This document shows positions 6,972-17,950 of a stretch of 64,000 nt of DNA, piece after piece. The notes under the pieces were generated by a model. The model was not told the DNA's origin, did no database searches, and worked only from the letters and a program-made list of their open reading frames with translations. Origin of the DNA: a virus (taxonomy: Duplodnaviria; Heunggongvirae; Uroviricota; Caudoviricetes); IMG/VR virus record IMGVR_UViG_3300008107_000202, one strand, 5' to 3'. The number at the start of each line of letters is the position of its first letter. The stretch's first letter is position 1. The position numbers and the translations under genes are program-made.

Positions 6972-7361
6972 CTATTCTATCATGACTTTCTTGTTTGTCA
7001 AGTAGTTCCAGACTACTATTTGTAACTTTTTGTTTCTAGCAGTTTCAATCATGTTGCGAGTGCCAGGACTTTTTTCATCCCACAATGCAATAAGACCTTG
7101 TGCTACATTTGCCATTTGCGAATTGCGAACATGACCAGCACCTTTGAAGAATTTACCGTTAGGATACCAGTCAGCAGGATACTTGTCAACTGGAATTTGT
7201 CGCATTTCTGCAAACAACTCACCGACACGATCTGCTCCGCGAGCACAACCAGAGACTACTTCCGTGATTTTACCATAACGCTGCTCGAAGTCAAGCACTG
7301 CTGCTTTGCACTGTCGAACTTGCTCTGGTACGTCACGACTACCTGCGATGATTACTTTCAT
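6972..7361 (-). CDS. SLOG-family Rossmann protein (DUF2493/YspA-like)
   Basis: MKVIIAGSRD ... VVSGCARGADRVGE, a close match to the DUF2493 consensus. Confidence 0.65.
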   Translation of the reverse strand: MKVIIAGSRDVPEQVRQCKAAVLDFEQRYGKITEVVSGCARGADRVGELFAEMRQIPVDKYPADWYPNGKFFKGAGHVRNSQMANVAQGLIALWDEKSPGTRNMIETARNKKLQIVVWNYLTNKKVMIE

Positions 7362-7687
7362 ACTTTTTCGTAAGTAAATTCGGACTCTTCCAAGTAGTAA
7401 TACGTTTTATCATGCCTGTTGTACTCACAGGTGAGTGTACCCCTGTACATGACACCATCTACGATAAATTCTTGCCTGTACTCGTCGCATCCGACATTGT
7501 ATGCACCTTGACAGTCTTGGTATGCTCTTTGCTCAAGCATTTCTTCCACTTCACGCAAAGCAACGTCAAGAGATTCAAACACATTGTTTTCAGCTTTTGA
7601 TTCAAAGTCAAACAGTTCAGCCTCTGCATCTTCTAGTTGTTTTTTTGCAAGTGCAATTTGAGTTTTCAGTTCGTTCAGTGTTTTCAT
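7358..7687 (-). CDS. hypothetical protein (coiled-coil N-terminus)
   Basis: ORF with a 4-nt overlap with its neighbours. Confidence 0.4.
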   Translation of the reverse strand: MKTLNELKTQIALAKKQLEDAEAELFDFESKAENNVFESLDVALREVEEMLEQRAYQDCQGAYNVGCDEYRQEFIVDGVMYRGTLTCEYNRHDKTYYYLEESEFTYEKV

Positions 7688-8193
7688 TTTATACCTTTCT
7701 TAAAGCTCATCTGTGTACGTTGGATATACTCAGGCACTTCACGACCAAGAAGAACTTCTAAGAATTCTTCAGGTAGCTTCACGTTTTCAGAACGACCAGC
7801 AAACATCGGTGCAATGTCTTCTGCCTTATGACCAGCAAGACCACAACCGATGGCAGTTACCATGAACTCTAGGTTCGGATTATCACGAGCAAATCGGATG
7901 AACAGATCAACGTAGAAGCTGATGACTCCAAGTTCAAGAGTATCACTAGGAATGGCTCGACCTTCGTACTTGGTAGGGATACCATACGACTGACCTTGCA
8001 GACCAAGACCTTGACCGTAGATCGCACCGTATTTGTCAAGCGCAACTTTAGCTGCACCACTACCGTGACGACCACGACGGTTTGATCCGAATACGAAGAT
8101 TTGATTAGGTTTCAACATGATGTACTTGAACTCCTGATTGTTTGAGAAGATTGATACCATCTTCGGACTTATATACTTCACCATAGAATACAC
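7684..8193 (-). CDS. Rossmann-like protein with Gly-rich FVFGSNRRGRHGSGAA motif (LOG/SLOG-like?), function unknown
   Basis: Motif reading only. Confidence 0.35.
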   Translation of the reverse strand: MYSMVKYISPKMVSIFSNNQEFKYIMLKPNQIFVFGSNRRGRHGSGAAKVALDKYGAIYGQGLGLQGQSYGIPTKYEGRAIPSDTLELGVISFYVDLFIRFARDNPNLEFMVTAIGCGLAGHKAEDIAPMFAGRSENVKLPEEFLEVLLGREVPEYIQRTQMSFKKGIK

Positions 8194-8566
8194 TGCTTAC
8201 TCCACAGCTAAGCAGCAGCGCAGCGCAGTGCTCACAAGGTGATAGCGTAACATAGACTGTCGATCCTTTGCAAGAGATTCCTTCTCTGGCAGCTTTGATG
8301 ATGCAGTTAAGCTCAGCATGAATGACTTCTGTCTTTGTGACAAGCTCACCTGTTTTCATGTCTACTCGCTCAAGATCGTTACTACGACCTGGGGCAGTTC
8401 CATTGTAGCCAGGAAGAAGAACACCGTTGGCTGTAACCAGCAGTGCTCCTACTTTAGCTCTGACACCTTTGGAGCGTCGAGCATACATCAAAGCCTGCTG
8501 CATATGCAAGCTGTGTTCTTCTGGTTTCATTATCCCATGATCCTTTCGGCTTGAGGTACAACACAC
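8105..8566 (-). CDS. dCMP deaminase (cytidine/deoxycytidylate deaminase zinc-binding fold)
   Basis: HAELNCI ... SPCEHCAALL (H-x-E and PCxxC). Confidence 0.8.
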   Translation of the reverse strand: MCCTSSRKDHGIMKPEEHSLHMQQALMYARRSKGVRAKVGALLVTANGVLLPGYNGTAPGRSNDLERVDMKTGELVTKTEVIHAELNCIIKAAREGISCKGSTVYVTLSPCEHCAALLLSCGVSSVFYGEVYKSEDGINLLKQSGVQVHHVET

Positions 8567-8847
8567 TTTGGTTTTGGTTTATCCCAACCATTAGTAACAG
8601 TCAAAATGTACTCGTCGTTATCGTCACCCGTCAAGTCCTGAAGCTGAAGAATAAGTTCTTCGATTCGGTGCTTGGCTACTGTCAGGTCTTTCTCGGGTGA
8701 GAGTCGAATGACTGCATAGCCGTTTGGACCCGACACTATCATCGTTCGTGAACTCATCGGATTTAAAGTACCCGTGGACTCTGTAGTTTCTGCTGTCGTC
8801 TCTGAAGTAGTCGTTGAAGTCATCGTCCTCCACCATTTTCTCTCCAT
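8530..8847 (-). CDS. hypothetical protein
   Basis: ORF only. Confidence 0.3.
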   Translation of the reverse strand: MERKWWRTMTSTTTSETTAETTESTGTLNPMSSRTMIVSGPNGYAVIRLSPEKDLTVAKHRIEELILQLQDLTGDDNDEYILTVTNGWDKPKPKCVVPQAERIMG

Positions 8848-9047
8848 AATTTTACTCTGTAGATGAACTCTTGGTAATCAGGTGAATCGGATGCAAAAAT
8901 GTGAGCAATAACAACCACTGCAATAATGACTGCGGGAATCATCATGTATGCACTGTTAAAAACTGCTCCAAGAAATAGTGCAGCAATCCAAACTGAAATA
9001 CCTGTTACTTTCAAAAGATACATCCAAGGAAGATCACGCAGTTGCAT
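8820..9047 (-). CDS. small membrane protein
   Basis: Two hydrophobic segments. Confidence 0.35.
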   Translation of the reverse strand: MQLRDLPWMYLLKVTGISVWIAALFLGAVFNSAYMMIPAVIIAVVVIAHIFASDSPDYQEFIYRVKLWRENGGGR

Positions 9048-9049
9048 GA

Positions 9050-9319
9050 TTACCCCTTGATCATCTTCTTCAGCGACTTCTGAATGCGTTCTTGGTTGGC
9101 GCGGAATTGCTTACCAGTGCGAATCGAGTCACGAACAATGTTCATGATATGGAAGTTCGCTTCGGTTTCAGGCTTCGTCTTGTCAACCTGATCGTACAGC
9201 GTGTTAGCGATACCCTTCAGTTGGAACAGACGTTCGTTGGTGGTGCGCAGAAGACGCCGGTTGAACGTGATAAGGCGAGCGATGTCACCTTCGGTCAGAT
9301 GGTTAGTACGATTTGTCAT
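9050..9319 (-). CDS. hypothetical protein
   Basis: ORF only. Confidence 0.35.
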   Translation of the reverse strand: MTNRTNHLTEGDIARLITFNRRLLRTTNERLFQLKGIANTLYDQVDKTKPETEANFHIMNIVRDSIRTGKQFRANQERIQKSLKKMIKG

Positions 9320-9462
9320 TTGTATCTCCTAGTTGAGTTGAGGAAGCATCAGTTTATAGCAGCATGAATAGAAAAGCAAGCATGAAAGTGTAACAGGATC
9401 ATATACTTAGATGAATCAATGAATAGATAGATGAATACTTAAATTTTGAGTATTCCAGCGTC

Positions 9463-10002
9463 TCAAGCAAATCTAGCAAACTCGCCATACACATTCATTG
9501 CGGCAGCACAATACGCAGAGTGAGCAGATTCCTTGTCAGCAAAGTAGCCGAGGTGATGAATAACACCATTGATTGATATACATGATTTCCATTTTGATTT
9601 ACGTTTATCAAAATATACACCTTTGTATCCGCTAGTATTGTTACTTCCTAATTTCTGATTACAGTTATTTTGCATACGTGTTGCAATCCTGAGATTTGAG
9701 ATTCGATTGTCCAGCTTGTTGCAGTTAATATGATCGGTATCGTATCCGTCAGGAGCATTTATGATCAATCTGTGCATCAATATTTTTTGCCAACTACCGT
9801 CAGATTTCCTTACATCCGTAGCAGCGTATCCACTATTGAAATACCAGTTGTACTTTTCAACCAATGGAATGCTAACAATACCAATAACTGTTTCATAACC
9901 TTTTGTTAAAGGAACAATTGCTATGTCTTCACATATTTTAACTTGTCTTAGTTTCATAAATACTCCTGTAATGCTAAATACTGTTATTACTATACTTAAC
10001 AC
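9463..10002 (-). CDS. HNH endonuclease with C-terminal AP2 DNA-binding domain
   Basis: DTDHINCNKLDNRISNLR (HNH) and YKGVYFDKRKSKWKSCISINGVIHHLGYF (AP2). Confidence 0.7.
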   Translation of the reverse strand: MLSIVITVFSITGVFMKLRQVKICEDIAIVPLTKGYETVIGIVSIPLVEKYNWYFNSGYAATDVRKSDGSWQKILMHRLIINAPDGYDTDHINCNKLDNRISNLRIATRMQNNCNQKLGSNNTSGYKGVYFDKRKSKWKSCISINGVIHHLGYFADKESAHSAYCAAAMNVYGEFARFA

Positions 10003-10306
10003 ACTGATATTATTCTATACTTTAAATGTTTCGTTGTAGGAAAAGACAAGCCTTCTACAACGGCGTGATACAAAATCACCCTGTAGCGGCTCGGTCTTGG
10101 ATACTCTCGTTGTGAGGGTTCTCTAATCCTGTTATCCATCGAGGTCAGTGACTTGTCGATGTCCTTCTAGTCCAGGATTAACTTGTGCTACTGCTCAAGT
10201 CAAGTGTAACTAGGGATTCTTGGTGAATTGCACACACCCGAGAGCCTTACGGACTTCCCATACCCTTGCTGGCATTGTAACCGATCACAAAGTTGAAGTC
10301 AACCCC

Positions 10307-10334
10307 TTGACAATCCCAGAAGTCATGATATGAT
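10307..10334 (+). promoter_or_regulatory. sigma70-like promoter TTGACA-N16-TATGAT for the rightward early block
   Basis: Read directly from the divergent intergenic region 10003-10360. Confidence 0.4.
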
Positions 10335-10360
10335 GCCAACCCTTACAACTTGGAGGAACC

Positions 10361-10774
10361 ATGCCATTGCCTGACAAAAACCTAATCGTAGTCAACTCCA
10401 TCGTTACACCTGATGGCACTCGACTGTACTCTCATCATCGTCACGACTACAAGTCACACATTGACAAGAACGGTCGATACTACGCTGTAGATGGTGGTCG
10501 AGATTATCTCAAGAGAAATTACGATGAGCTAGACTATATGGAAGCTAGTCTGTCCTACGGTGATCCTCATTCTGAAATTCGTAAACATTTCATGTGGTTT
10601 TCCAGTGATGGTCGAAAGACTCTTCTGAAGGACTTGACTGCTGAACACCTTCAGGCTATCATCGCTACTCAACATCATCTTCCCGCTTACATCCATGAGC
10701 AATTTCTAAACGAAGTAGCATGGAGAGCAGAAGAATCAATCGTCAAACATGTGGAGGTACGTAAACGTGGTTAA
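10361..10774 (+). CDS. hypothetical protein
   Basis: ORF; first gene of the plus-strand block. Confidence 0.4.
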   Translation: MPLPDKNLIVVNSIVTPDGTRLYSHHRHDYKSHIDKNGRYYAVDGGRDYLKRNYDELDYMEASLSYGDPHSEIRKHFMWFSSDGRKTLLKDLTAEHLQAIIATQHHLPAYIHEQFLNEVAWRAEESIVKHVEVRKRG

Positions 10775-10937
10775 ACTTCTTGTTGCATTTCTACTTGCAA
10801 TGCTCGTTGTCTTTGTGGTAGCATACTTCGGTGCGGTAAACAAAAGCCGCTCAACTTTCTGGAAATATGTCGGTATCGGTACTACACTAGCAATTGGTGC
10901 ATTTGCTTTGCTGACAGGTGTTGTTGTATTGTTCTAA
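10749..10937 (+). CDS. small membrane protein
   Basis: Hydrophobic 62-aa ORF. Confidence 0.35.
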   Translation: MWRYVNVVKLLVAFLLAMLVVFVVAYFGAVNKSRSTFWKYVGIGTTLAIGAFALLTGVVVLF

Positions 10938-10950
10938 CTAAAGGAGAAAC

Positions 10951-11760
10951 ATGAACATTCGTAATATTGGTCGTACTCTTGCAATCGCTCTGATTGCTAT
11001 TTCTGCTGCTGCTTGTACTCGTGTCGAAACGGGTGAAGTTGGTCTGCGTGTTGACATGTCGAAACAGGTACAGATGGGTGAACTGATGCCCGGTAGCTGG
11101 AACCAGACTCTTGTTGGTGATGTGCTGACGTTCCCTGTGCGAGACATTGGTGGTAGTCTTGAAGACAAACGTCCGCTTACCAAAGATGATGTTGCACTGA
11201 AGCAAGTTGACCTGTCGTATGTATACGGTGTTAGTCCTACCGCTGTTGCTGAACTTTGGACTAAGCAACCACGCTCGTTTCACTTTGTAGATACCAAGTC
11301 AGGTGACACGTTCCTGATGGCAGTTCGAATGCAAACTCTCGTTAACAACGCCCTCTATGAAGCTGTTCGCAAGTACGGCACCAAAGAAGTTAACGACAAG
11401 CGACAAGCAATTGAACAAGATGTAAACGACATCGTTGCTCGAACTCTGAAGAACGACAAGCTCGAAGGTGTGTTGACACTGACTAGTGTACAAGTTCGTG
11501 CAATTGATCTTCCTGACAACATTCGTGACAGTGCAGCAGAAGTTGTGCGTTCACAGAATATGCTTGCTGTGAAAGCCAACGAAGTTGCGATTGCTGAAAA
11601 AGAAGCCGAACGTATGCGTGCTCTGAGTGCTAACTCTGGTCAGTCGATTGCATACATGGACGCACAAGCTCGGTTGAATATCTCTGAGGCTGTGAAGCTC
11701 GGTAAGGTTTCGACTATCGTCGTGCCGCACGACTTCAAGGGTTTCGTGAACGTTAAGTAA
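10951..11760 (+). CDS. SPFH/band-7 (HflK/prohibitin-like) lipoprotein
   Basis: Signal peptide with lipobox AAAC, then an SPFH-like core (GEVGLRV...TKDDVAL..VDLSYVYGV). Confidence 0.45.
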   Translation: MNIRNIGRTLAIALIAISAAACTRVETGEVGLRVDMSKQVQMGELMPGSWNQTLVGDVLTFPVRDIGGSLEDKRPLTKDDVALKQVDLSYVYGVSPTAVAELWTKQPRSFHFVDTKSGDTFLMAVRMQTLVNNALYEAVRKYGTKEVNDKRQAIEQDVNDIVARTLKNDKLEGVLTLTSVQVRAIDLPDNIRDSAAEVVRSQNMLAVKANEVAIAEKEAERMRALSANSGQSIAYMDAQARLNISEAVKLGKVSTIVVPHDFKGFVNVK

Positions 11761-11764
11761 ACCA

Positions 11765-11787
11765 GGGAGCTTCGGCTCCCTTCTTTT
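11765..11787 (+). terminator. Rho-independent terminator GGGAGC-TTCG-GCTCCC + TTCTTTT
   Basis: Hairpin plus U-run. Confidence 0.55.
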
Positions 11788-11799
11788 GATTGGAAAAAC

Positions 11800-12036
11800 A
11801 TGTGGAACTATCGACTAGTACAAATTGAAGAACTTGGTGACATTACAGTAGAAGTCTGTGAGGTTTACTACGACCACGATCAAGTGCCTCACGGTTACTG
11901 TGCTGCTAAGCTATTCACAACTCCCGACACAGACGGTGATCCGAAGGCTTCTATCCGATGGACACTTGACCGCATGCAGGAAGCTGTGCAGAAACCCATT
12001 CTGCATTATCCCCAAGACTTTACAGGAAAAAGTTGA
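11800..12036 (+). CDS. hypothetical protein
   Basis: ORF only. Confidence 0.35.
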   Translation: MWNYRLVQIEELGDITVEVCEVYYDHDQVPHGYCAAKLFTTPDTDGDPKASIRWTLDRMQEAVQKPILHYPQDFTGKS

Positions 12037-12120
12037 CACCGAACCAGCAAGCTGCTATCATTCACAGCATCAACATCGTACTCGGTGTTTTGAACAACCA
12101 GATTCAATAAAGGAAACATA

Positions 12121-13182
12121 ATGACAGAACGTGCTCTAGCTACCATCCGTAAGATTGAAGAAATTGCCCCCATTGAAGGGGCAGACAAGATCGAAGTTGC
12201 CCGTGTTGGTGGCTGGCGTGTTGTCGTGAAGAAGGGTGAATTCCAAGTCGGTCAACTCGCTGTATACTTCGAAATCGACTCGTGGATTCCTCACGATCTT
12301 GCTCCGTTCCTGACTCGTCCTGGCAAGGAACCTGCTGAGTTCAATGGTGTCAAGGGTCAGCGTCTGCGCACGGTTCGTCTGCGTGGTCAAATCTCGCAAG
12401 GTCTACTGCTGCCCATTATTGACACATGTGGAATGGACTTTATTGGTTTTACTGTTAATGGTTTTTTTGTTACAGGTAACTATAACGAAGGTGATGATTT
12501 CACTGAAAAGTTGAATGTTCAGAAGTGGGAAAAGCCTATTCCTTCGAACATGCAAGGTATCATGCGTGGTAACTTCCCTTCGTGTGTACCGAAGACTGAT
12601 CAAGAGCGTGTGCAAAACATCAAGACTTCCGTTCTTGAGCAGTACGTTGGTCATCATTTCGAAGTAACTGAAAAGATGGACGGTTCAAGCTGTACCATGC
12701 TGCTTGACTCTGAAGGTCTGTTTCATGTATGCTCTCGTAACGTTGACCTCGAACGTGATGAGTCGAATGTCTACTGGCAAATGGCTATCAAGTATGATGT
12801 TAAAGCTAAGCTTCGTGAACTGATTGCTCTTGGTGGTTCAATGGCTATTCAAGGTGAAATCTGCGGTCCTGGTATTCAAGGCAATCAGTATGAATTTACT
12901 GAACCGGATTTCTTTGTGTACGACATGTATGACCCCGGTACTGCAACATATTGTCCTCCAGGTATTCGACAATCCATTGTGGAGGCACTAGGTCTAAAGC
13001 ATGTTCCTGTTATCGTGATGGGTACACTACAAAGTGCTAATCGTGATGTGCTACTGGAAGACGCCAAGGATTGTTCAGTGTTTAATAAAACACCACGAGA
13101 AGGTCTGGTGTTCAAGCTGAATTCTAAGGATCGTTTTAGCTTCAAGGTAATCAGCAACGACTGGCTGGAGAAGTACGAATAG
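12121..13182 (+). CDS. ATP-dependent RNA ligase, Rnl5 (Naegleria/Deinococcus)-like: N-terminal domain plus C-terminal nucleotidyltransferase
   Basis: Motif I EKMDGSS, motif IV EGLVFK, motif V FKVIS; no C-terminal OB domain. Confidence 0.5.
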   Translation: MTERALATIRKIEEIAPIEGADKIEVARVGGWRVVVKKGEFQVGQLAVYFEIDSWIPHDLAPFLTRPGKEPAEFNGVKGQRLRTVRLRGQISQGLLLPIIDTCGMDFIGFTVNGFFVTGNYNEGDDFTEKLNVQKWEKPIPSNMQGIMRGNFPSCVPKTDQERVQNIKTSVLEQYVGHHFEVTEKMDGSSCTMLLDSEGLFHVCSRNVDLERDESNVYWQMAIKYDVKAKLRELIALGGSMAIQGEICGPGIQGNQYEFTEPDFFVYDMYDPGTATYCPPGIRQSIVEALGLKHVPVIVMGTLQSANRDVLLEDAKDCSVFNKTPREGLVFKLNSKDRFSFKVISNDWLEKYE

Positions 13183-13192
13183 GAGGTACATC

Positions 13193-14908
13193 ATAGGAAT
13201 TTTCGTAAGACACACATCTTGTGACTCCTGTGGAAGCTCAGACGGGCGAGCCCTCTACCAAGACGGCTCGTTTTATTGTTGGGTTTGCCAAAAAGGTAAA
13301 GCATCACAGGAATACATAGAGTCACTAGGTGGTGACAAGTCTAAACCAAAACGACAGGAGAAGCCATTGCTTGACCTAACAATCAAACCTAGCGGTAAAG
13401 AACGAATCAGTGCAGAAGATTGGCAGAATATCAAAGATAATACCACAACGGATGTTTCTTATCGTGGTATTCGTCCAGAGACTAATCGTAAATTCGGAGT
13501 ACGATACGCTGTAGACGCAGAAGGTAACGTTCTCACGCAGTATTGCCCTATCACAAAAGGCGGTGAGCTATCCGGCCTGAAGCGTCGGGATCACCCGAAA
13601 GAATTCTCAGGTATTGCTGTGACAGGCGCAGAGTGCGATCTGTTTATGCAGCACAAGTTCAAGTCAGGAGGCAAGTACGTTGTCCTTACGGAAGGTGAAA
13701 TCGATGCGCTCTCAGCGTATCAAATGCTCAACGACTACAACCGTTCGCGTGGTTCCGATTTCGAGACTGCCGTGGTTTCTGCGACAACTGGCGCGAATAG
13801 CTATAAGCAAATTGCTGCGCAGTATAAGTTCTTTGACTCGTTCGACAACATCATCCTCTGTCTTGATACAGACGAAGCTGGTCAGGATGCCCAGGAGCAA
13901 ATCGTCAAGGTTCTCCCAAAGGGTAAGATCAAGGTAATGAAGCTGAAGTTCAAGGATGCTAACGAATACCTCAAGCGTGAGAATCCTAGAGACTTTATCA
14001 CAGCGTTCTATGACGCACAACCTTATGTCCCTCTTGGTGTAGTAGGCTCTGGTTCTCTGTATGATGCTGTGTTGAATCAAGCACTGATGAAACGTATTCC
14101 GTTTCCGAAGTTCATGGGTGAAGCGAACATCATGCTCTGTGGTGGTATTCCACTTGGACACATCATCAACCTTGCAGCACTGACTGGTGCAGGTAAGACG
14201 ACTGTAGTTAACGAAATCATCTACGAGTGGATTTTCACTTCACCACATATGCTCGGTATTGTGAGTCTGGAACTCGACAAGGGTCAGTATGGTGAAGCAC
14301 TGCTTAGCCGACACTTGAGCCGCAAGATTGCCCTGTTCTCTGACGACGAAGCACGCATGCGATTCCTTACCTCAGAAGAGGTCAAGACTAAAGCTACAGA
14401 ATTGTTTATGAAGGATGGTAGCAATCACCGCTTCTACGTCCTAGATAACCGAGACGGAAGTGTTGAAGAAATCCAAGCTGCCATCGAGGAACTGATCGTT
14501 GCGTGTGGTTGTCGTGTGATCGTTCTAGACCCATTGCAGGATATCATGGCTGGTGTTTCGGTTGAAAAGCAGGAAGAGTTCATGCAGTGGATGAAAGGTA
14601 TGATCAAGAGCCACAAGGTTTCTTTCATTCTGATTAACCACATCCGAAAGTCAGCGGCTGGTTCCAACAGTGGTGAATTCGGTGAAGAAGATATTCAAGG
14701 TAGTTCGACCATCATCAAGTCGGCTTCTGTGACTATTCTTCTGTATCGTGATAAGAACCACGAAGACCCTGTTATGCGAAACACAACAAGAATGGTCATG
14801 CCGAAGAATCGTATCACAGGTATTACTGGTCCTGCTGGTGAAATCTACTACGACAATGAAACCCATACTCTGTTTAACAAGGCAGAGTTCTTTGGTGGAA
14901 CGACATGA
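13193..14908 (+). CDS. T7 gp4-like primase-helicase (Zn ribbon, TOPRIM, DnaB-like helicase); translation must start upstream of the first canonical start (13367)
   Basis: In-frame CDSCGSSDGRALYQDGSFYCWVCQ matches the T7 gp4 N-terminus. Walker A LTGAGKTT. SD AGGAGG at 13181-13186 is followed by ATC/ATA only. Confidence 0.8.
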   Translation: MGIFVRHTSCDSCGSSDGRALYQDGSFYCWVCQKGKASQEYIESLGGDKSKPKRQEKPLLDLTIKPSGKERISAEDWQNIKDNTTTDVSYRGIRPETNRKFGVRYAVDAEGNVLTQYCPITKGGELSGLKRRDHPKEFSGIAVTGAECDLFMQHKFKSGGKYVVLTEGEIDALSAYQMLNDYNRSRGSDFETAVVSATTGANSYKQIAAQYKFFDSFDNIILCLDTDEAGQDAQEQIVKVLPKGKIKVMKLKFKDANEYLKRENPRDFITAFYDAQPYVPLGVVGSGSLYDAVLNQALMKRIPFPKFMGEANIMLCGGIPLGHIINLAALTGAGKTTVVNEIIYEWIFTSPHMLGIVSLELDKGQYGEALLSRHLSRKIALFSDDEARMRFLTSEEVKTKATELFMKDGSNHRFYVLDNRDGSVEEIQAAIEELIVACGCRVIVLDPLQDIMAGVSVEKQEEFMQWMKGMIKSHKVSFILINHIRKSAAGSNSGEFGEEDIQGSSTIIKSASVTILLYRDKNHEDPVMRNTTRMVMPKNRITGITGPAGEIYYDNETHTLFNKAEFFGGTT

Positions 14909-15135
14909 GACTAAGATGGAAAATCCAGAGTGATGTTCCAAACTCTAGACCTGTGCTACAGTTCTGGCAACGGGAATCCATCATGAGTGAATTGTCAGGA
15001 TTAGACTATTCAGAAAATGGTAGATGGGTGAATGTCCCTGTGGTGATTGAACCTAGTGGACCAGGGGAAACACCATCGTGTTGTGATGGTGGTAATTGGT
15101 GGGGACATCATGAATCTTGCCCAAACGTGCGCTAG
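14905..15135 (+). CDS. hypothetical Cys-rich small protein
   Basis: ORF only. Confidence 0.3.
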   Translation: MRLRWKIQSDVPNSRPVLQFWQRESIMSELSGLDYSENGRWVNVPVVIEPSGPGETPSCCDGGNWWGHHESCPNVR

Positions 15136-15142
15136 ACAAATA

Positions 15143-15173
15143 GCCTACCCGTGTGGTAGGCTTTCCTTTTTTA
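15143..15173 (+). terminator. Rho-independent terminator AGCCTACC-CGTGT-GGTAGGCT + TTCCTTTTTT
   Basis: Hairpin plus U-run. Confidence 0.6.
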
Positions 15174-15176
15174 CAC

Positions 15177-15205
15177 TTGACTTTTCTGTATTTATGATGT
15201 AGAAT
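15177..15205 (+). promoter_or_regulatory. sigma70-like promoter TTGACT-N17-TAGAAT
   Basis: Read directly; precedes the ORF at 15243. Confidence 0.5.
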
Positions 15206-15242
15206 AGTATTCTTTGTCTTTAACCACCTTACAGGAATATCA

Positions 15243-15794
15243 ATGAAACAATGTAAAGACTGCAAAGAATATCGAAGCCTCACAGACTACTATATCTGCA
15301 ATAAAAAACCTCTGCGTTACTACTCGTCGTGTAAAGAATGTACAAAATTAAAGTCTAGAAGTAAATACGCAAATCTATCAGAAGAGCAAAAAAACATAGA
15401 ACGAAAGAAAAGACTTGATAGTCTCGATAGAGAAAGAGCAAAAGCTAGAAGTACAAAACACTATTCCACAGTAGAAGGTAGGGCCAAGACTCTATTGAAA
15501 GGTGTCAAGGATAGAGATGTTTCTCACGATCTTGATCTACAATGGTTCATTGACAAGCTTCAGGTCGGTAAGTGTGAAGTTACAGGTATTCCGTTTGATT
15601 TCAACCCTCACCCTGTTTACAAGAAGAACCCAATGTCACCATCTATCGACAGAATCAACTCATCTCTTGGTTATCAAAAAGAAAACTGTAGAATGGTAGT
15701 GTGGCAATATAATATGGGCAAAGGTGAAACGTCCGACTCGGAATTCTTAGAGTTTTGTAGAAAACTCGTATCAAAATACAAGGAAGAACAATGA
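15243..15794 (+). CDS. Zn-finger / His-Me-finger (HNH-family) endonuclease-like protein
   Basis: N-terminal CxxC..CxxC; C-terminal SIDRINSSLGYQKENCRMVVWQYNMGKG. Confidence 0.45.
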   Translation: MKQCKDCKEYRSLTDYYICNKKPLRYYSSCKECTKLKSRSKYANLSEEQKNIERKKRLDSLDRERAKARSTKHYSTVEGRAKTLLKGVKDRDVSHDLDLQWFIDKLQVGKCEVTGIPFDFNPHPVYKKNPMSPSIDRINSSLGYQKENCRMVVWQYNMGKGETSDSEFLEFCRKLVSKYKEEQ

Positions 15795-17950
15795 CACTTA
15801 AATACTGGATTTGGGATATTGAAACGTACCCTAACTGTTTCACCATCAGCATCATTCGTCAAGACGGTAAGCACCTTCGTTCTTTCGAGTGCAGTCGTCG
15901 GAAGAATGATTTCGCCAAAATTCGCACCTGTGTGGAATATCTCGAAGAAAACGATGCAGTCATGGTCGGTTTCAACAACCTGGGATTCGACTATCCTGTC
16001 CTGCATGGTCTACTGCTGCATCCTGGCGTTGACCAAATGTCAGGTCTTGGTGTAGCAAAGCTGGCGTATAAGCTAGCTCAGGCACAGATTGATTCAACCA
16101 AGCAAGGTTTCCCTAAGACCGTTCCTGTGTACGACTGGATTGTTCCCCAGGTAGATTTGTATAAGATTTGGCACTTCGACAACAAGGCCAAGGCTACAGG
16201 TCTGAAGATGCTTGAGTTTAACATGCGCTCAGACAATATTGAAGACCTTCCGTATGCTGTCGGCACCGAACTGGAAGACCATGAGATTGATGTGTTGATT
16301 CATTACAACCAGCACGATATCAAGGAAACTCTGAAGTTCTTCGGTCATAGTCTTACTCAAATTCACTTCCGTGAAGAACTGACTGCTAAGTATGGTCGCA
16401 ATTTCATGAACCATAACGACACGAAGATCGGTAAAGACTACTTCATCATGGAGCTAGAGAAGCAAGGTGTGAAGTGCTATATCAAGCAAAACGGTAAGAC
16501 TGCGCCTGTACAAACTCGTCGTCCTTACATCAATATCGCAGACTGCTTGTTTGATTACTATGACTTCAAGCGTCCTGAGTTCATTGCAATTCTGGAATGG
16601 TTCAAGCACCAACGCATTCGTGAAACCAAAGGTGTGTTTGCTGATATTGCAGAGCATCGTCTTGGTGAAGTTGCGAAGTATGCGAAGATGCGTACCAAAC
16701 GTCAACGTTATCCAATGAAGCCTAGTGAGATTGTAGAAAACCTGTTCAAGAATGAGTATCCCTGCGGATGGATTGACGAAGTAGAACTGAAGCAGAAACT
16801 CAAGGGTGAGTTCAAGAAGAGTTACTGGAAGTGCTGGAACGTGGCAGACAACCTGAACGTGGTAGTTGATGGTTTTCAATTCGACTTTGGTACAGGTGGT
16901 ATTCACGGTAGCCTAGAGTTCACGCTGGTGGAAGCTGACAGTGAATACGAGATTGTAGATGCTGACGTTAGCTCAATGTATCCTAATCTGGCTATCTCCA
17001 ATGACGTTTACCCTGAACACCTTGGTATTGAATTCTGTACGATTTACAAAGCAGTGTATGAAATGCGTAAGTCCTACAAGAAAGGTACACCTGAGAACCT
17101 GATGCTCAAGCTGGCTCTGAACGGTGTTTACGGTGACTCGAATAACCAGTACAGTCCGTTCTATGATCCTAAGTACACGATGACGATTACGATTAACGGA
17201 CAGCTCACACTCTGTCTACTTGCTGAAAAGCTGATGACAATCGAAGGTCTGCAACTGATCCAAGTCAACACTGACGGTGTTACTGTGAAGATTCCTCGTG
17301 CCAAGCGTGCTGAGTACAACGCAGTATGTGAAGCATGGCAAAAGCAAGTTAAGCTTGAGCTTGAGTATGCGGAGTATTCGAAGATGTTCATTAGAGATTG
17401 CAATAACTATATCGCGGTGTACACTAACGGTAAGGTCAAGCGTAAAGGTGTGTATCAGTACGAAGACCTGGGTTGGCACCAAAACCAGGGCGGTCTGGTT
17501 ATCGCCAAGGCTGCTGAAGCTGCAATGGTTCATGGTACAGATATCGAAGAGTTCATCAAGGCGCATACTGACAAGTATGACTTCCTGATGCGTACAAAGG
17601 TGCCTCGTAGCTCAAGTCTATATCTTGAGAAAGATGAACTGGATGCTGAAGACAAACCTGTCAGAGTAAAGCAACAGAATATCTGTCGATACTACGTGTC
17701 AAAGTCTCCTGACAGTGGTAAGCTGATCAAGGTCATGCCTCCACTACCGAAGAAACCCGATGACGTTCGTGAAATCGGCATCGAGTCAGCTTGGAAGGTG
17801 AAGACTTGCAACAACATGCTTGACTTCGACGGACAGATCGACTATGCTTACTACGTTCATGAAGCAAGAAAGCTTCTGGTACCACCTGTGTTTACTCGTG
17901 AAGAACTTGCCAAGATGGCAGAAGGGAAAGACGATGAGTTTGAAGAATGA
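15791..17950 (+). CDS. DNA polymerase, family B (3'-5' exonuclease plus polymerase)
   Basis: Exo I WDIETYP; motif A DADVSSMYPNLAI; motif B KLALNGVYGDS; motif C QVNTDGVTV. Confidence 0.85.
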   Translation: MTLKYWIWDIETYPNCFTISIIRQDGKHLRSFECSRRKNDFAKIRTCVEYLEENDAVMVGFNNLGFDYPVLHGLLLHPGVDQMSGLGVAKLAYKLAQAQIDSTKQGFPKTVPVYDWIVPQVDLYKIWHFDNKAKATGLKMLEFNMRSDNIEDLPYAVGTELEDHEIDVLIHYNQHDIKETLKFFGHSLTQIHFREELTAKYGRNFMNHNDTKIGKDYFIMELEKQGVKCYIKQNGKTAPVQTRRPYINIADCLFDYYDFKRPEFIAILEWFKHQRIRETKGVFADIAEHRLGEVAKYAKMRTKRQRYPMKPSEIVENLFKNEYPCGWIDEVELKQKLKGEFKKSYWKCWNVADNLNVVVDGFQFDFGTGGIHGSLEFTLVEADSEYEIVDADVSSMYPNLAISNDVYPEHLGIEFCTIYKAVYEMRKSYKKGTPENLMLKLALNGVYGDSNNQYSPFYDPKYTMTITINGQLTLCLLAEKLMTIEGLQLIQVNTDGVTVKIPRAKRAEYNAVCEAWQKQVKLELEYAEYSKMFIRDCNNYIAVYTNGKVKRKGVYQYEDLGWHQNQGGLVIAKAAEAAMVHGTDIEEFIKAHTDKYDFLMRTKVPRSSSLYLEKDELDAEDKPVRVKQQNICRYYVSKSPDSGKLIKVMPPLPKKPDDVREIGIESAWKVKTCNNMLDFDGQIDYAYYVHEARKLLVPPVFTREELAKMAEGKDDEFEE

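Follow-up and report, generated by a model that had tools for sequence, protein, structure and literature searches.

A T7 gp4-type phage primase-helicase gene with a conserved AUA as the predicted start of its zinc-finger-bearing isoform

In primase-helicases of the T7 gp4 type the zinc-binding domain (ZBD) is needed for template recognition, and the primase activity of T7 gp4 itself depends on this zinc finger. Naturally conserved AUA start codons are, to our knowledge, very rare in bacteria and phages. T7 gene 4 yields two proteins, gp4A of 63 kDa and gp4B of 56 kDa, and the latter starts at Met64 (PMC1616965). AUA, AUU and AUC starts work at 1-2% of the AUG level in E. coli (bioRxiv 10.1101/063800) and at about 7.5% in other systems, and in an optimised initiation region in vitro AUA equals AUG (PMC5499595). 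Initiation factor 3 (IF3) handles all three codons as non-canonical, and an AUG-to-AUA mutation in T4 rIIB, as cited in the same paper, takes translation down by about 85% at 25 °C (both PMC5499595). Here we describe a gene in which a two-isoform layout of the T7 kind seems to be combined with an AUA start. It lies in a stretch of 64,000 nucleotides from a phage of the Caudoviricetes (IMG/VR virus record IMGVR_UViG_3300008107_000202), and this whole stretch is called the window below. The gene at 13193-14908 is, judged by its homology, a T7-gp4-type bifunctional primase-helicase, for which we propose, with a probability of roughly 0.72, that a long isoform of 571 amino acids is initiated at AUA 13193 and a short one of 513 at UUG 13367.

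A preliminary description of this DNA had placed a zinc ribbon in frame with the helicase open reading frame (ORF) but ahead of any ATG, GTG or TTG, and inspection of the frame bears this out. The primase-helicase ORF as called runs from TTG 13367 to 14908 on the plus strand and the same frame is open back to 13151, the in-frame TAA at 13148-13150 being its upstream limit, and the 72 in-frame codons of 13151-13366 include not a single ATG, GTG or TTG. They encode ...RYIIGIFVRHTSCDSCGSSDGRALYQDGSFYCWVCQK..., with the cysteine codons of the Cys4 ribbon at 13220, 13229, 13277 and 13286. Start-type codons make up 5.1% of the remainder of the gene, and 72 codons lacking one are expected by chance at about 2%, which is only mildly unlikely, so that it is the homology to the T7 gp4 ZBD that puts the start-less stretch beyond chance. 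In a phmmer search against PDB, query residues 3-560 match T7 gp4 10-542 (6n7i, E=1.4e-52), and the alignment pairs IFVRHTSCDSCGSSDGRALYQDGSFYCWVC with VFLYHIPCDNCGSSDGNSLFSDGHTFCYVC. PHROG 239, 'DNA primase/helicase', is matched at 1.6e-164 over the full length and at 4e-6 by the 58-residue N-terminus alone, on which the sole Pfam match is PF08273 Zn_Ribbon_Prim, at 18 bits and under the 23-bit cut-off.

Ahead of the ribbon, the RNA-ligase ORF upstream ends in a TAG (13180-13182) with which the sequence AGGAGG at 13181-13186 overlaps, and in frame after AGGAGG come TAC, ATC (13190), ATA (13193), GGA and ATT (13199). AGGAGG is the strongest Shine-Dalgarno (SD) sequence among eight neighbouring translation initiation regions and its spacing to ATA 13193 is 6 nt; the neighbouring genes have ATG starts behind weaker SDs. 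A long pre-start stretch with an SD and then a near-cognate codon occurs only in the primase ORF among the long ORFs of the window, and the idea of a genome-wide tolerance of ATA starts in the window was rejected on that ground. An Rfam scan of 1-16000 returned tRNAs only and no Rfam family at the start site. The description of an SD followed by ATC and ATA stands as to the SD and the codons; the SD begins at 13181, and the start we propose is ATA 13193 and not ATC.

The case for that codon comes from homologues. In the closest isolates, Limnohabitans phage DC31 (57% amino-acid identity) and Curvibacter phage P26059A (44.5%), the gene begins AAGGAG-tagaa-TTG GCA AAT TTC GTT AAG CAC and AAGGAG-aaca-GTG GCA AAT TTT ATT AAA CAT, respectively, and the window reads AGGAGG-tacatc-ATA GGA ATT TTC GTA AGA CAC, with ATA 13193 standing codon for codon in the column of the TTG and GTG starts, (M)ANFVKHT.C versus (I)GIFVRHTSC. 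Four diverged relatives (54-75% amino-acid identity) have ATA at the start column as well, behind a GGAG-type SD. The start regions are gaaTAGGAGGtaatcATA GGA GTA TTC ATC AAA CAT in locus L016, GGAGGtaatcATA GGA GTA TTC GTC AAA CAC in L017, AGGAGactaaaATA GCA GCG TTC ATT AAA CAC in L018 and GGAGaagatcATA GGT ATT TTT ATT AGA CAC in L019/L020. An unbiased scan of JGI/ENA metagenome contigs gave L051, again with ATA (AGGAGataatcATA GCA AAT TTT), and L048, with ATT at the homologous place (AGGAGattaattATT GCT ACA AGA TTT); L048, on an ERZ1034363 contig, is a more distant member whose ATT, at 1489-1491, follows AGGAG at 7 nt. A motif of the GGAG type (GGAGG, AGGAG or GGAG) lies 5-7 nt 5' of the ATA or ATT in L016, L017, L018, L019, L051 and L048, and in the window, L016, L017, L018, L051 and L048 there is no in-frame canonical start from the upstream stop to the first cysteine. 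Across 43 distinct loci the start column holds ATG in 21, TTG in 11, GTG in four, ATA in six and ATT in one. A neighbour-joining tree has the form (L019,(window,(L016,L017))), an all-ATA clade that is sister to (L018-ATA, L075-GTG); L051-ATA and L048-ATT are far from this clade and so at least three independent origins are indicated.

These relatives also bear on which of the near-cognate codons is the start. ATC, ATA and ATT are all near-cognate and in frame 3' of the SD, and the ATC-ATA pair is common to five of the six ATA loci, so initiation at ATC 13190 or ATT 13199 in place of ATA 13193 had to be considered. However ATC 13190 is an unlikely start because its SD spacing is too short (3 nt in the window, 2 nt in both L016 and L017) and because the codon is AAA in L018. 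At the place of ATT 13199, L016 and L017 both read GTA and L051 reads AAT. ATA alone is common to all ATA loci and is in the homologous start column, and we give these neighbouring codons about one chance in ten between them.

An error of sequencing or assembly, the true codon being ATG or another canonical start and the A an artefact, was among the explanations first suggested, and ATA is indeed a single transition from ATG. At least ten independently assembled metagenome contigs from different samples are nevertheless 100% identical to the window over 13120-13380, and come from different runs and projects in Logan (SRR9659500, SRR31534951, SRR9659496, SRR31514716), ENA (ERZ27247978, ERZ27247957) and JGI (3300042691, 3300057178, 3300061645, 3300005527). 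The identity covers the whole of 12121-14908 in three of the four contigs from JGI, and begins at 13046 in the fourth, which is shorter. Since independent assemblies agree over the site an assembly error is excluded, and with the same ATA in diverged relatives an artefactual A has next to no likelihood left. Non-canonical initiation, which had been put forward beside it, is instead upheld by the comparative evidence of the start column, of the strongest local SD at 6 nt and of an ATA kept in diverged relatives whose synonymous sites are saturated.

Within the ATA clade, pairwise comparison of ZBD codons 2-34 gives proportions of nonsynonymous differences (pN) of 0.08-0.23 against synonymous ones (pS) of 0.52-0.95 (saturated), much like the rest of the gene, and this purifying selection on ZBD codons argues that the zinc ribbon is translated. 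The features to be expected of an AUH start (AUA, AUU or AUC) are then found together, namely a near-cognate codon in the start column, an SD at functional spacing, conservation of the codon and coding constraint downstream of it. It could still be held that the ribbon is an untranslated relic, the start codon having been lost, and that only the TTG-13367 product of helicase and TOPRIM with no ZBD is made, and this would agree with gene finders calling the 513-residue ORF only and with AUA being a poor start codon (10.1101/063800). Yet the frame is still open, all four cysteines and the GSSD motif are kept across relatives with saturated synonymous sites, pN/pS is about 0.1-0.25 in the ZBD and every lineage has kept a strong SD at 5-7 nt from the start. 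The ZBD is moreover required for template recognition in such primase-helicases, as established for T7 gp4, and so we consider a relic very improbable.

A different route to the ribbon would be its translation from the upstream gene, either as a ligase-primase fusion made by +1 frameshift or stop read-through or by strict coupling of termination and reinitiation. The ligase TAG does overlap the SD, there are 14 open codons in the primase frame ahead of the ATA, the ligase TAG of L016 is in frame, and weak start codons may be tolerated by reinitiating ribosomes. Both the frame relation and the upstream gene vary, however: the ligase of the window stops in another frame (+1) than that of the primase, in L016 the in-frame ligase TAG comes three codons before the ATA, in L017 an unrelated 66-residue ORF lies upstream of the SD, and in L019 there is an intergenic gap of ~68 nt with a terminator-like hairpin upstream, so that the part common to all four is the SD plus ATA only. 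There is no slippery motif, and the homologues with canonical starts begin at exactly the ATA column. Given such different upstream contexts, frameshifting, read-through or obligatory termination-reinitiation is not a shared mechanism, and as the source of the ribbon it appears no likelier than the relic. Coupling to ligase translation may supplement SD-driven initiation in the window.

A second initiation site most likely gives the 513-residue, helicase-only form that lacks the ZBD, like gp4B in T7, to judge from the linker between ZBD and primase domain. This linker is poorly conserved except immediately 5' of an anchor, [E/T][V/I]KPS, and a canonical start no more than five codons upstream of the anchor and behind a purine-rich SD is found in 39 of 41 loci. 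In 95 of 110 full-length family proteins a Met lies within six residues of the anchor, and the remaining linker residues include Met at only 2 of 2549 positions. The 'KE' codons (AAGGAA) conserved 5-6 positions upstream of the internal start constitute an SD embedded in coding sequence. In all six ATA loci the internal site is TTG or GTG and not ATG, with better SDs, whereas in nearly all canonical-start loci it is ATG, and it is suggestive, on only two or three independent events, that the weak long start and the shift of the internal start are co-tuned. The isoforms of gp4A/gp4B type that had been suggested at the outset therefore gain indirect support, in that an internal start with its SD in the ZBD-primase linker is conserved family-wide, and the isoforms themselves remain predicted.

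In the mechanism we propose, the unusually strong SD 6 nt upstream would drive formation of a 30S complex that places initiator tRNA on AUA 13193, where the ordinary initiator tRNA would presumably tolerate a mismatch at the third position of the codon, and initiation there would give the 571-residue product with its ZBD. The second initiation region (AGGAG, 6 nt, UUG 13367), within the linker, would give the 513-residue product without it. With so weak a codon as AUA little of the long form would be made, and this amount, which may be IF3-sensitive because IF3 discriminates against AUH starts, would determine how many subunits are primase-competent relative to the helicase-only ones. The long form is probably scarce because AUA, AUU and AUC initiate weakly. 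Actual use of the AUA, the efficiency of initiation there, the isoform ratio and any regulation of it are what we infer from the sequence.

Some points weigh against this proposal. Since initiation at AUA is as a rule very weak and IF3 selects against the codon, there could be extremely little of the long form. The L019/L020 locus is ambiguous because a TTG lies in frame there four codons 5' of the ATA; this TTG overlaps the SD and is not itself preceded by one. RNA folding of 13140-13260 against shuffled controls gave no significant structure (z = -0.17). It is conceivable in principle that the internal Met is conserved for a structural role and not as a start.

Whether the AUA goes further, as an adaptive and recurrently evolved setting that tunes the stoichiometry of zinc-finger-bearing and zinc-finger-less subunits in the replicative hexamer, and is not just a tolerated defect, is a more tentative matter, and we think it rather doubtful although far from negligible. 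The start of the long isoform is unusually often weak in this family, non-ATG codons occurring in 22 of the 43 loci and seven of these being AUH, and in every ATA lineage the internal site has moved from ATG to TTG or GTG with a gain in SD strength; the tuning would come from both changes together. Were an adaptive role true, the subunit ratio would be sensitive to IF3 and to physiological state.

The window has 13 tRNA genes clustered at 40-6959 on the minus strand, and two of these are of unusual form. The tRNA-Met(CAT) at 4465-4554 (minus) has 90 nt, a long variable arm, a U1-A72 pair and an anticodon stem with three G-C pairs at its base, the last being a hallmark of initiator tRNAs. The tRNA-Thr(TGT) at 6870-6959 (minus), likewise of 90 nt, has a conserved counterpart at 810-899 of L081, a relative with an ATA start; Met and Thr tRNAs do not usually carry long variable arms. 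A phage-encoded, initiator-like tRNA(CAU) specialised for the AUA start, for instance by modification of C34, might therefore be imagined, the odd variable arm and the anticodon stem of the tRNA-Met speaking for it together with phage DC31, which has the TTG start and shows no tRNA-Met in its first 40 kb. Against this the ATA relative L093 has no tRNA within 10 kb upstream of its primase gene, the Rfam score of the tRNA-Met is weak (36.5 bits), and the ordinary initiator tRNA already reads AUA at low efficiency, so that a dedicated tRNA seems an even poorer prospect than a relic or a fusion with the ligase.

Because the gene appears to start at the rare codon ATA, gene finders cut off its zinc finger. 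The four closest protein clusters (P0001 at 94%, P0002 at 75%, P0003 at 70% and P0097 at 62%) are called short at the N-terminus, as is the more distant P0033 (54%), and in P0001 the gap from the ligase gene to the called primase start is 184 nt, as in the window. The 513-residue product called from the TTG is present verbatim in a large protein collection. All public calls examined for the window gene and for its ATA and ATT relatives are truncated, at 505-541 residues compared with about 563-571, or at 844 compared with 864 for the intein-bearing P0033, and they lose all or part of the zinc finger; some are labelled 'hypothetical' or 'FlaH ATPase'. The same trap in annotation probably affects other phage genes. 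A protein-pattern scan of IMG/VR returned only relatives of at most 30% identity, uninformative on the start. In the literature that was searched, nothing relevant turned up on phage primase genes with an ATA start, nor any account of the recurrent AUA described here.

The features of the locus are collected in Table 1.

Table 1. Coordinates in the window of the primase-helicase gene, its proposed initiation sites and its surroundings
Feature	Coordinates	Strand	Evidence or remark
Upstream RNA-ligase gene, 353 aa, frame other than primase	12121..13182	+	Pfam PF21189 1.3e-30, PF09414 8.1e-27
SD AGGAGG of the long isoform	13181..13186	+	6 nt 5' of ATA 13193
ATC, alternative near-cognate codon, unlikely start	13190..13192	+	3 nt from SD; AAA in L018
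Proposed start codon ATA (AUA) of full-length primase-helicase	13193..13195	+	Aligned with homologue starts
Full-length primase-helicase coding sequence, predicted long isoform, 571 aa plus stop	13193..14908	+	PDB 6n7i, PHROG 239
Cys4 zinc ribbon CDSC..(15)..CWVC of the primase ZBD	13220..13288	+	T7 gp4 ZBD alignment
Internal SD AGGAG in linker codons	13356..13360	+	6 nt 5' of TTG 13367 (AGGAG-aagcca-TTG)
Predicted short isoform, 513 aa, TTG start, no zinc ribbon	13367..14908	+	ORF called by gene finders
TOPRIM (primase catalytic) domain	13682..13972	+	Pfam PF13155 Toprim_2 1.9e-13
DnaB-like / RecA-type helicase domain	14138..14827	+	Pfam PF03796 DnaB_C 9.2e-15

The TOPRIM RNA-polymerase domain is matched by PF01751 too, at 6.8e-5. 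In several homologues (P0006, P0033 from L019/L020, P0106, P0107, L072 and L075) inteins or homing-endonuclease domains (PF05203, PF05204, PF14528) interrupt the primase-helicase directly behind the 'TEGE' motif of TOPRIM; no intein is present in the window gene. In the Pseudomonas syringae phages phiPsa374, PN09, PE09 and others, tblastn matches to the window protein begin at residue ~82, the zinc ribbon in these being one of absent, diverged or again missed, and several of the homologues are annotated only as 'hypothetical protein'. Downstream of the primase gene a 76-residue ORF at 14905-15135 (+) has an ATG that overlaps with the TGA of the primase gene (ATGA); all the identical contigs have this ORF called, and it has no family match. 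Further on, a 719-residue ORF at 15791-17950 (+) has no Pfam match at E<=0.01, begins with a DIETYPN (DxE-like) motif and is syntenic with what Curvibacter phage P26059A has annotated as 'DNA polymerase B'; it probably encodes a DNA polymerase of very divergent sequence. As for the phage itself, one genotype (12121-14908; contigs L083-L092) is 100% nucleotide-identical in at least ten metagenome assemblies from different projects, and the window phage appears to be clonal and widely sampled. The INPHARED phage collection holds no close isolate of it, the best DNA match having 68% identity over 26% of the query.

As a protein it adds one more ordinary member to the gp4 family, and the predicted two-isoform layout is the known T7 arrangement; the unusual part is a naturally conserved and recurrent AUA, once AUU, as the predicted start of the long isoform. 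What is gained is a clade-level example of AUA, with independent recurrences, in an essential replication gene with probable dual initiation, and with it a clean natural system in which start-codon strength can be studied in relation to isoform ratio. With the internal start and the SD embedded before it, the gp4A/gp4B arrangement of T7 would hold for a large group of freshwater myovirus-like phages as well.

Set beside T7 gene 4, the window gene has the same domain order of Cys4 ZBD, TOPRIM and RecA-type hexameric helicase, homology over the full length of the sequence (6n7i, E=1.4e-52), a second in-frame start with its own SD in the ZBD-primase linker, here the predicted TTG 13367, and similar predicted sizes for its isoforms (571 and 513 residues). 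It differs in that both T7 starts are AUG, whereas in the window AUA is predicted for the long form and UUG for the short one, a strong SD standing before either; in that T7 Met64 aligns to a column ~12 residues downstream of the internal start; and in that the window isoforms are predicted. DC31 and P26059A resemble it in synteny (RNA ligase or HNH ahead of primase-helicase, a DNA-polymerase-like gene behind), in the SD, in the N-terminal sequence and in having the internal start, which is ATG in those two phages. Their long start codons are TTG and GTG, respectively, and for this reason their genes are annotated full length. The gene for IF3 in E. coli, infC, likewise has a phylogenetically conserved AUH start behind a functional SD, of a kind that IF3 discriminates against (PMC5499595), although its codon is AUU and not AUA, it is bacterial and not a phage gene, and autoregulation works there because the infC product is IF3 itself, IF3 dependence in the window being presumed. 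The AUG-to-AUA mutant of T4 rIIB is alike in that AUA can start a phage gene, and differs in being a laboratory mutant and not a conserved natural state.

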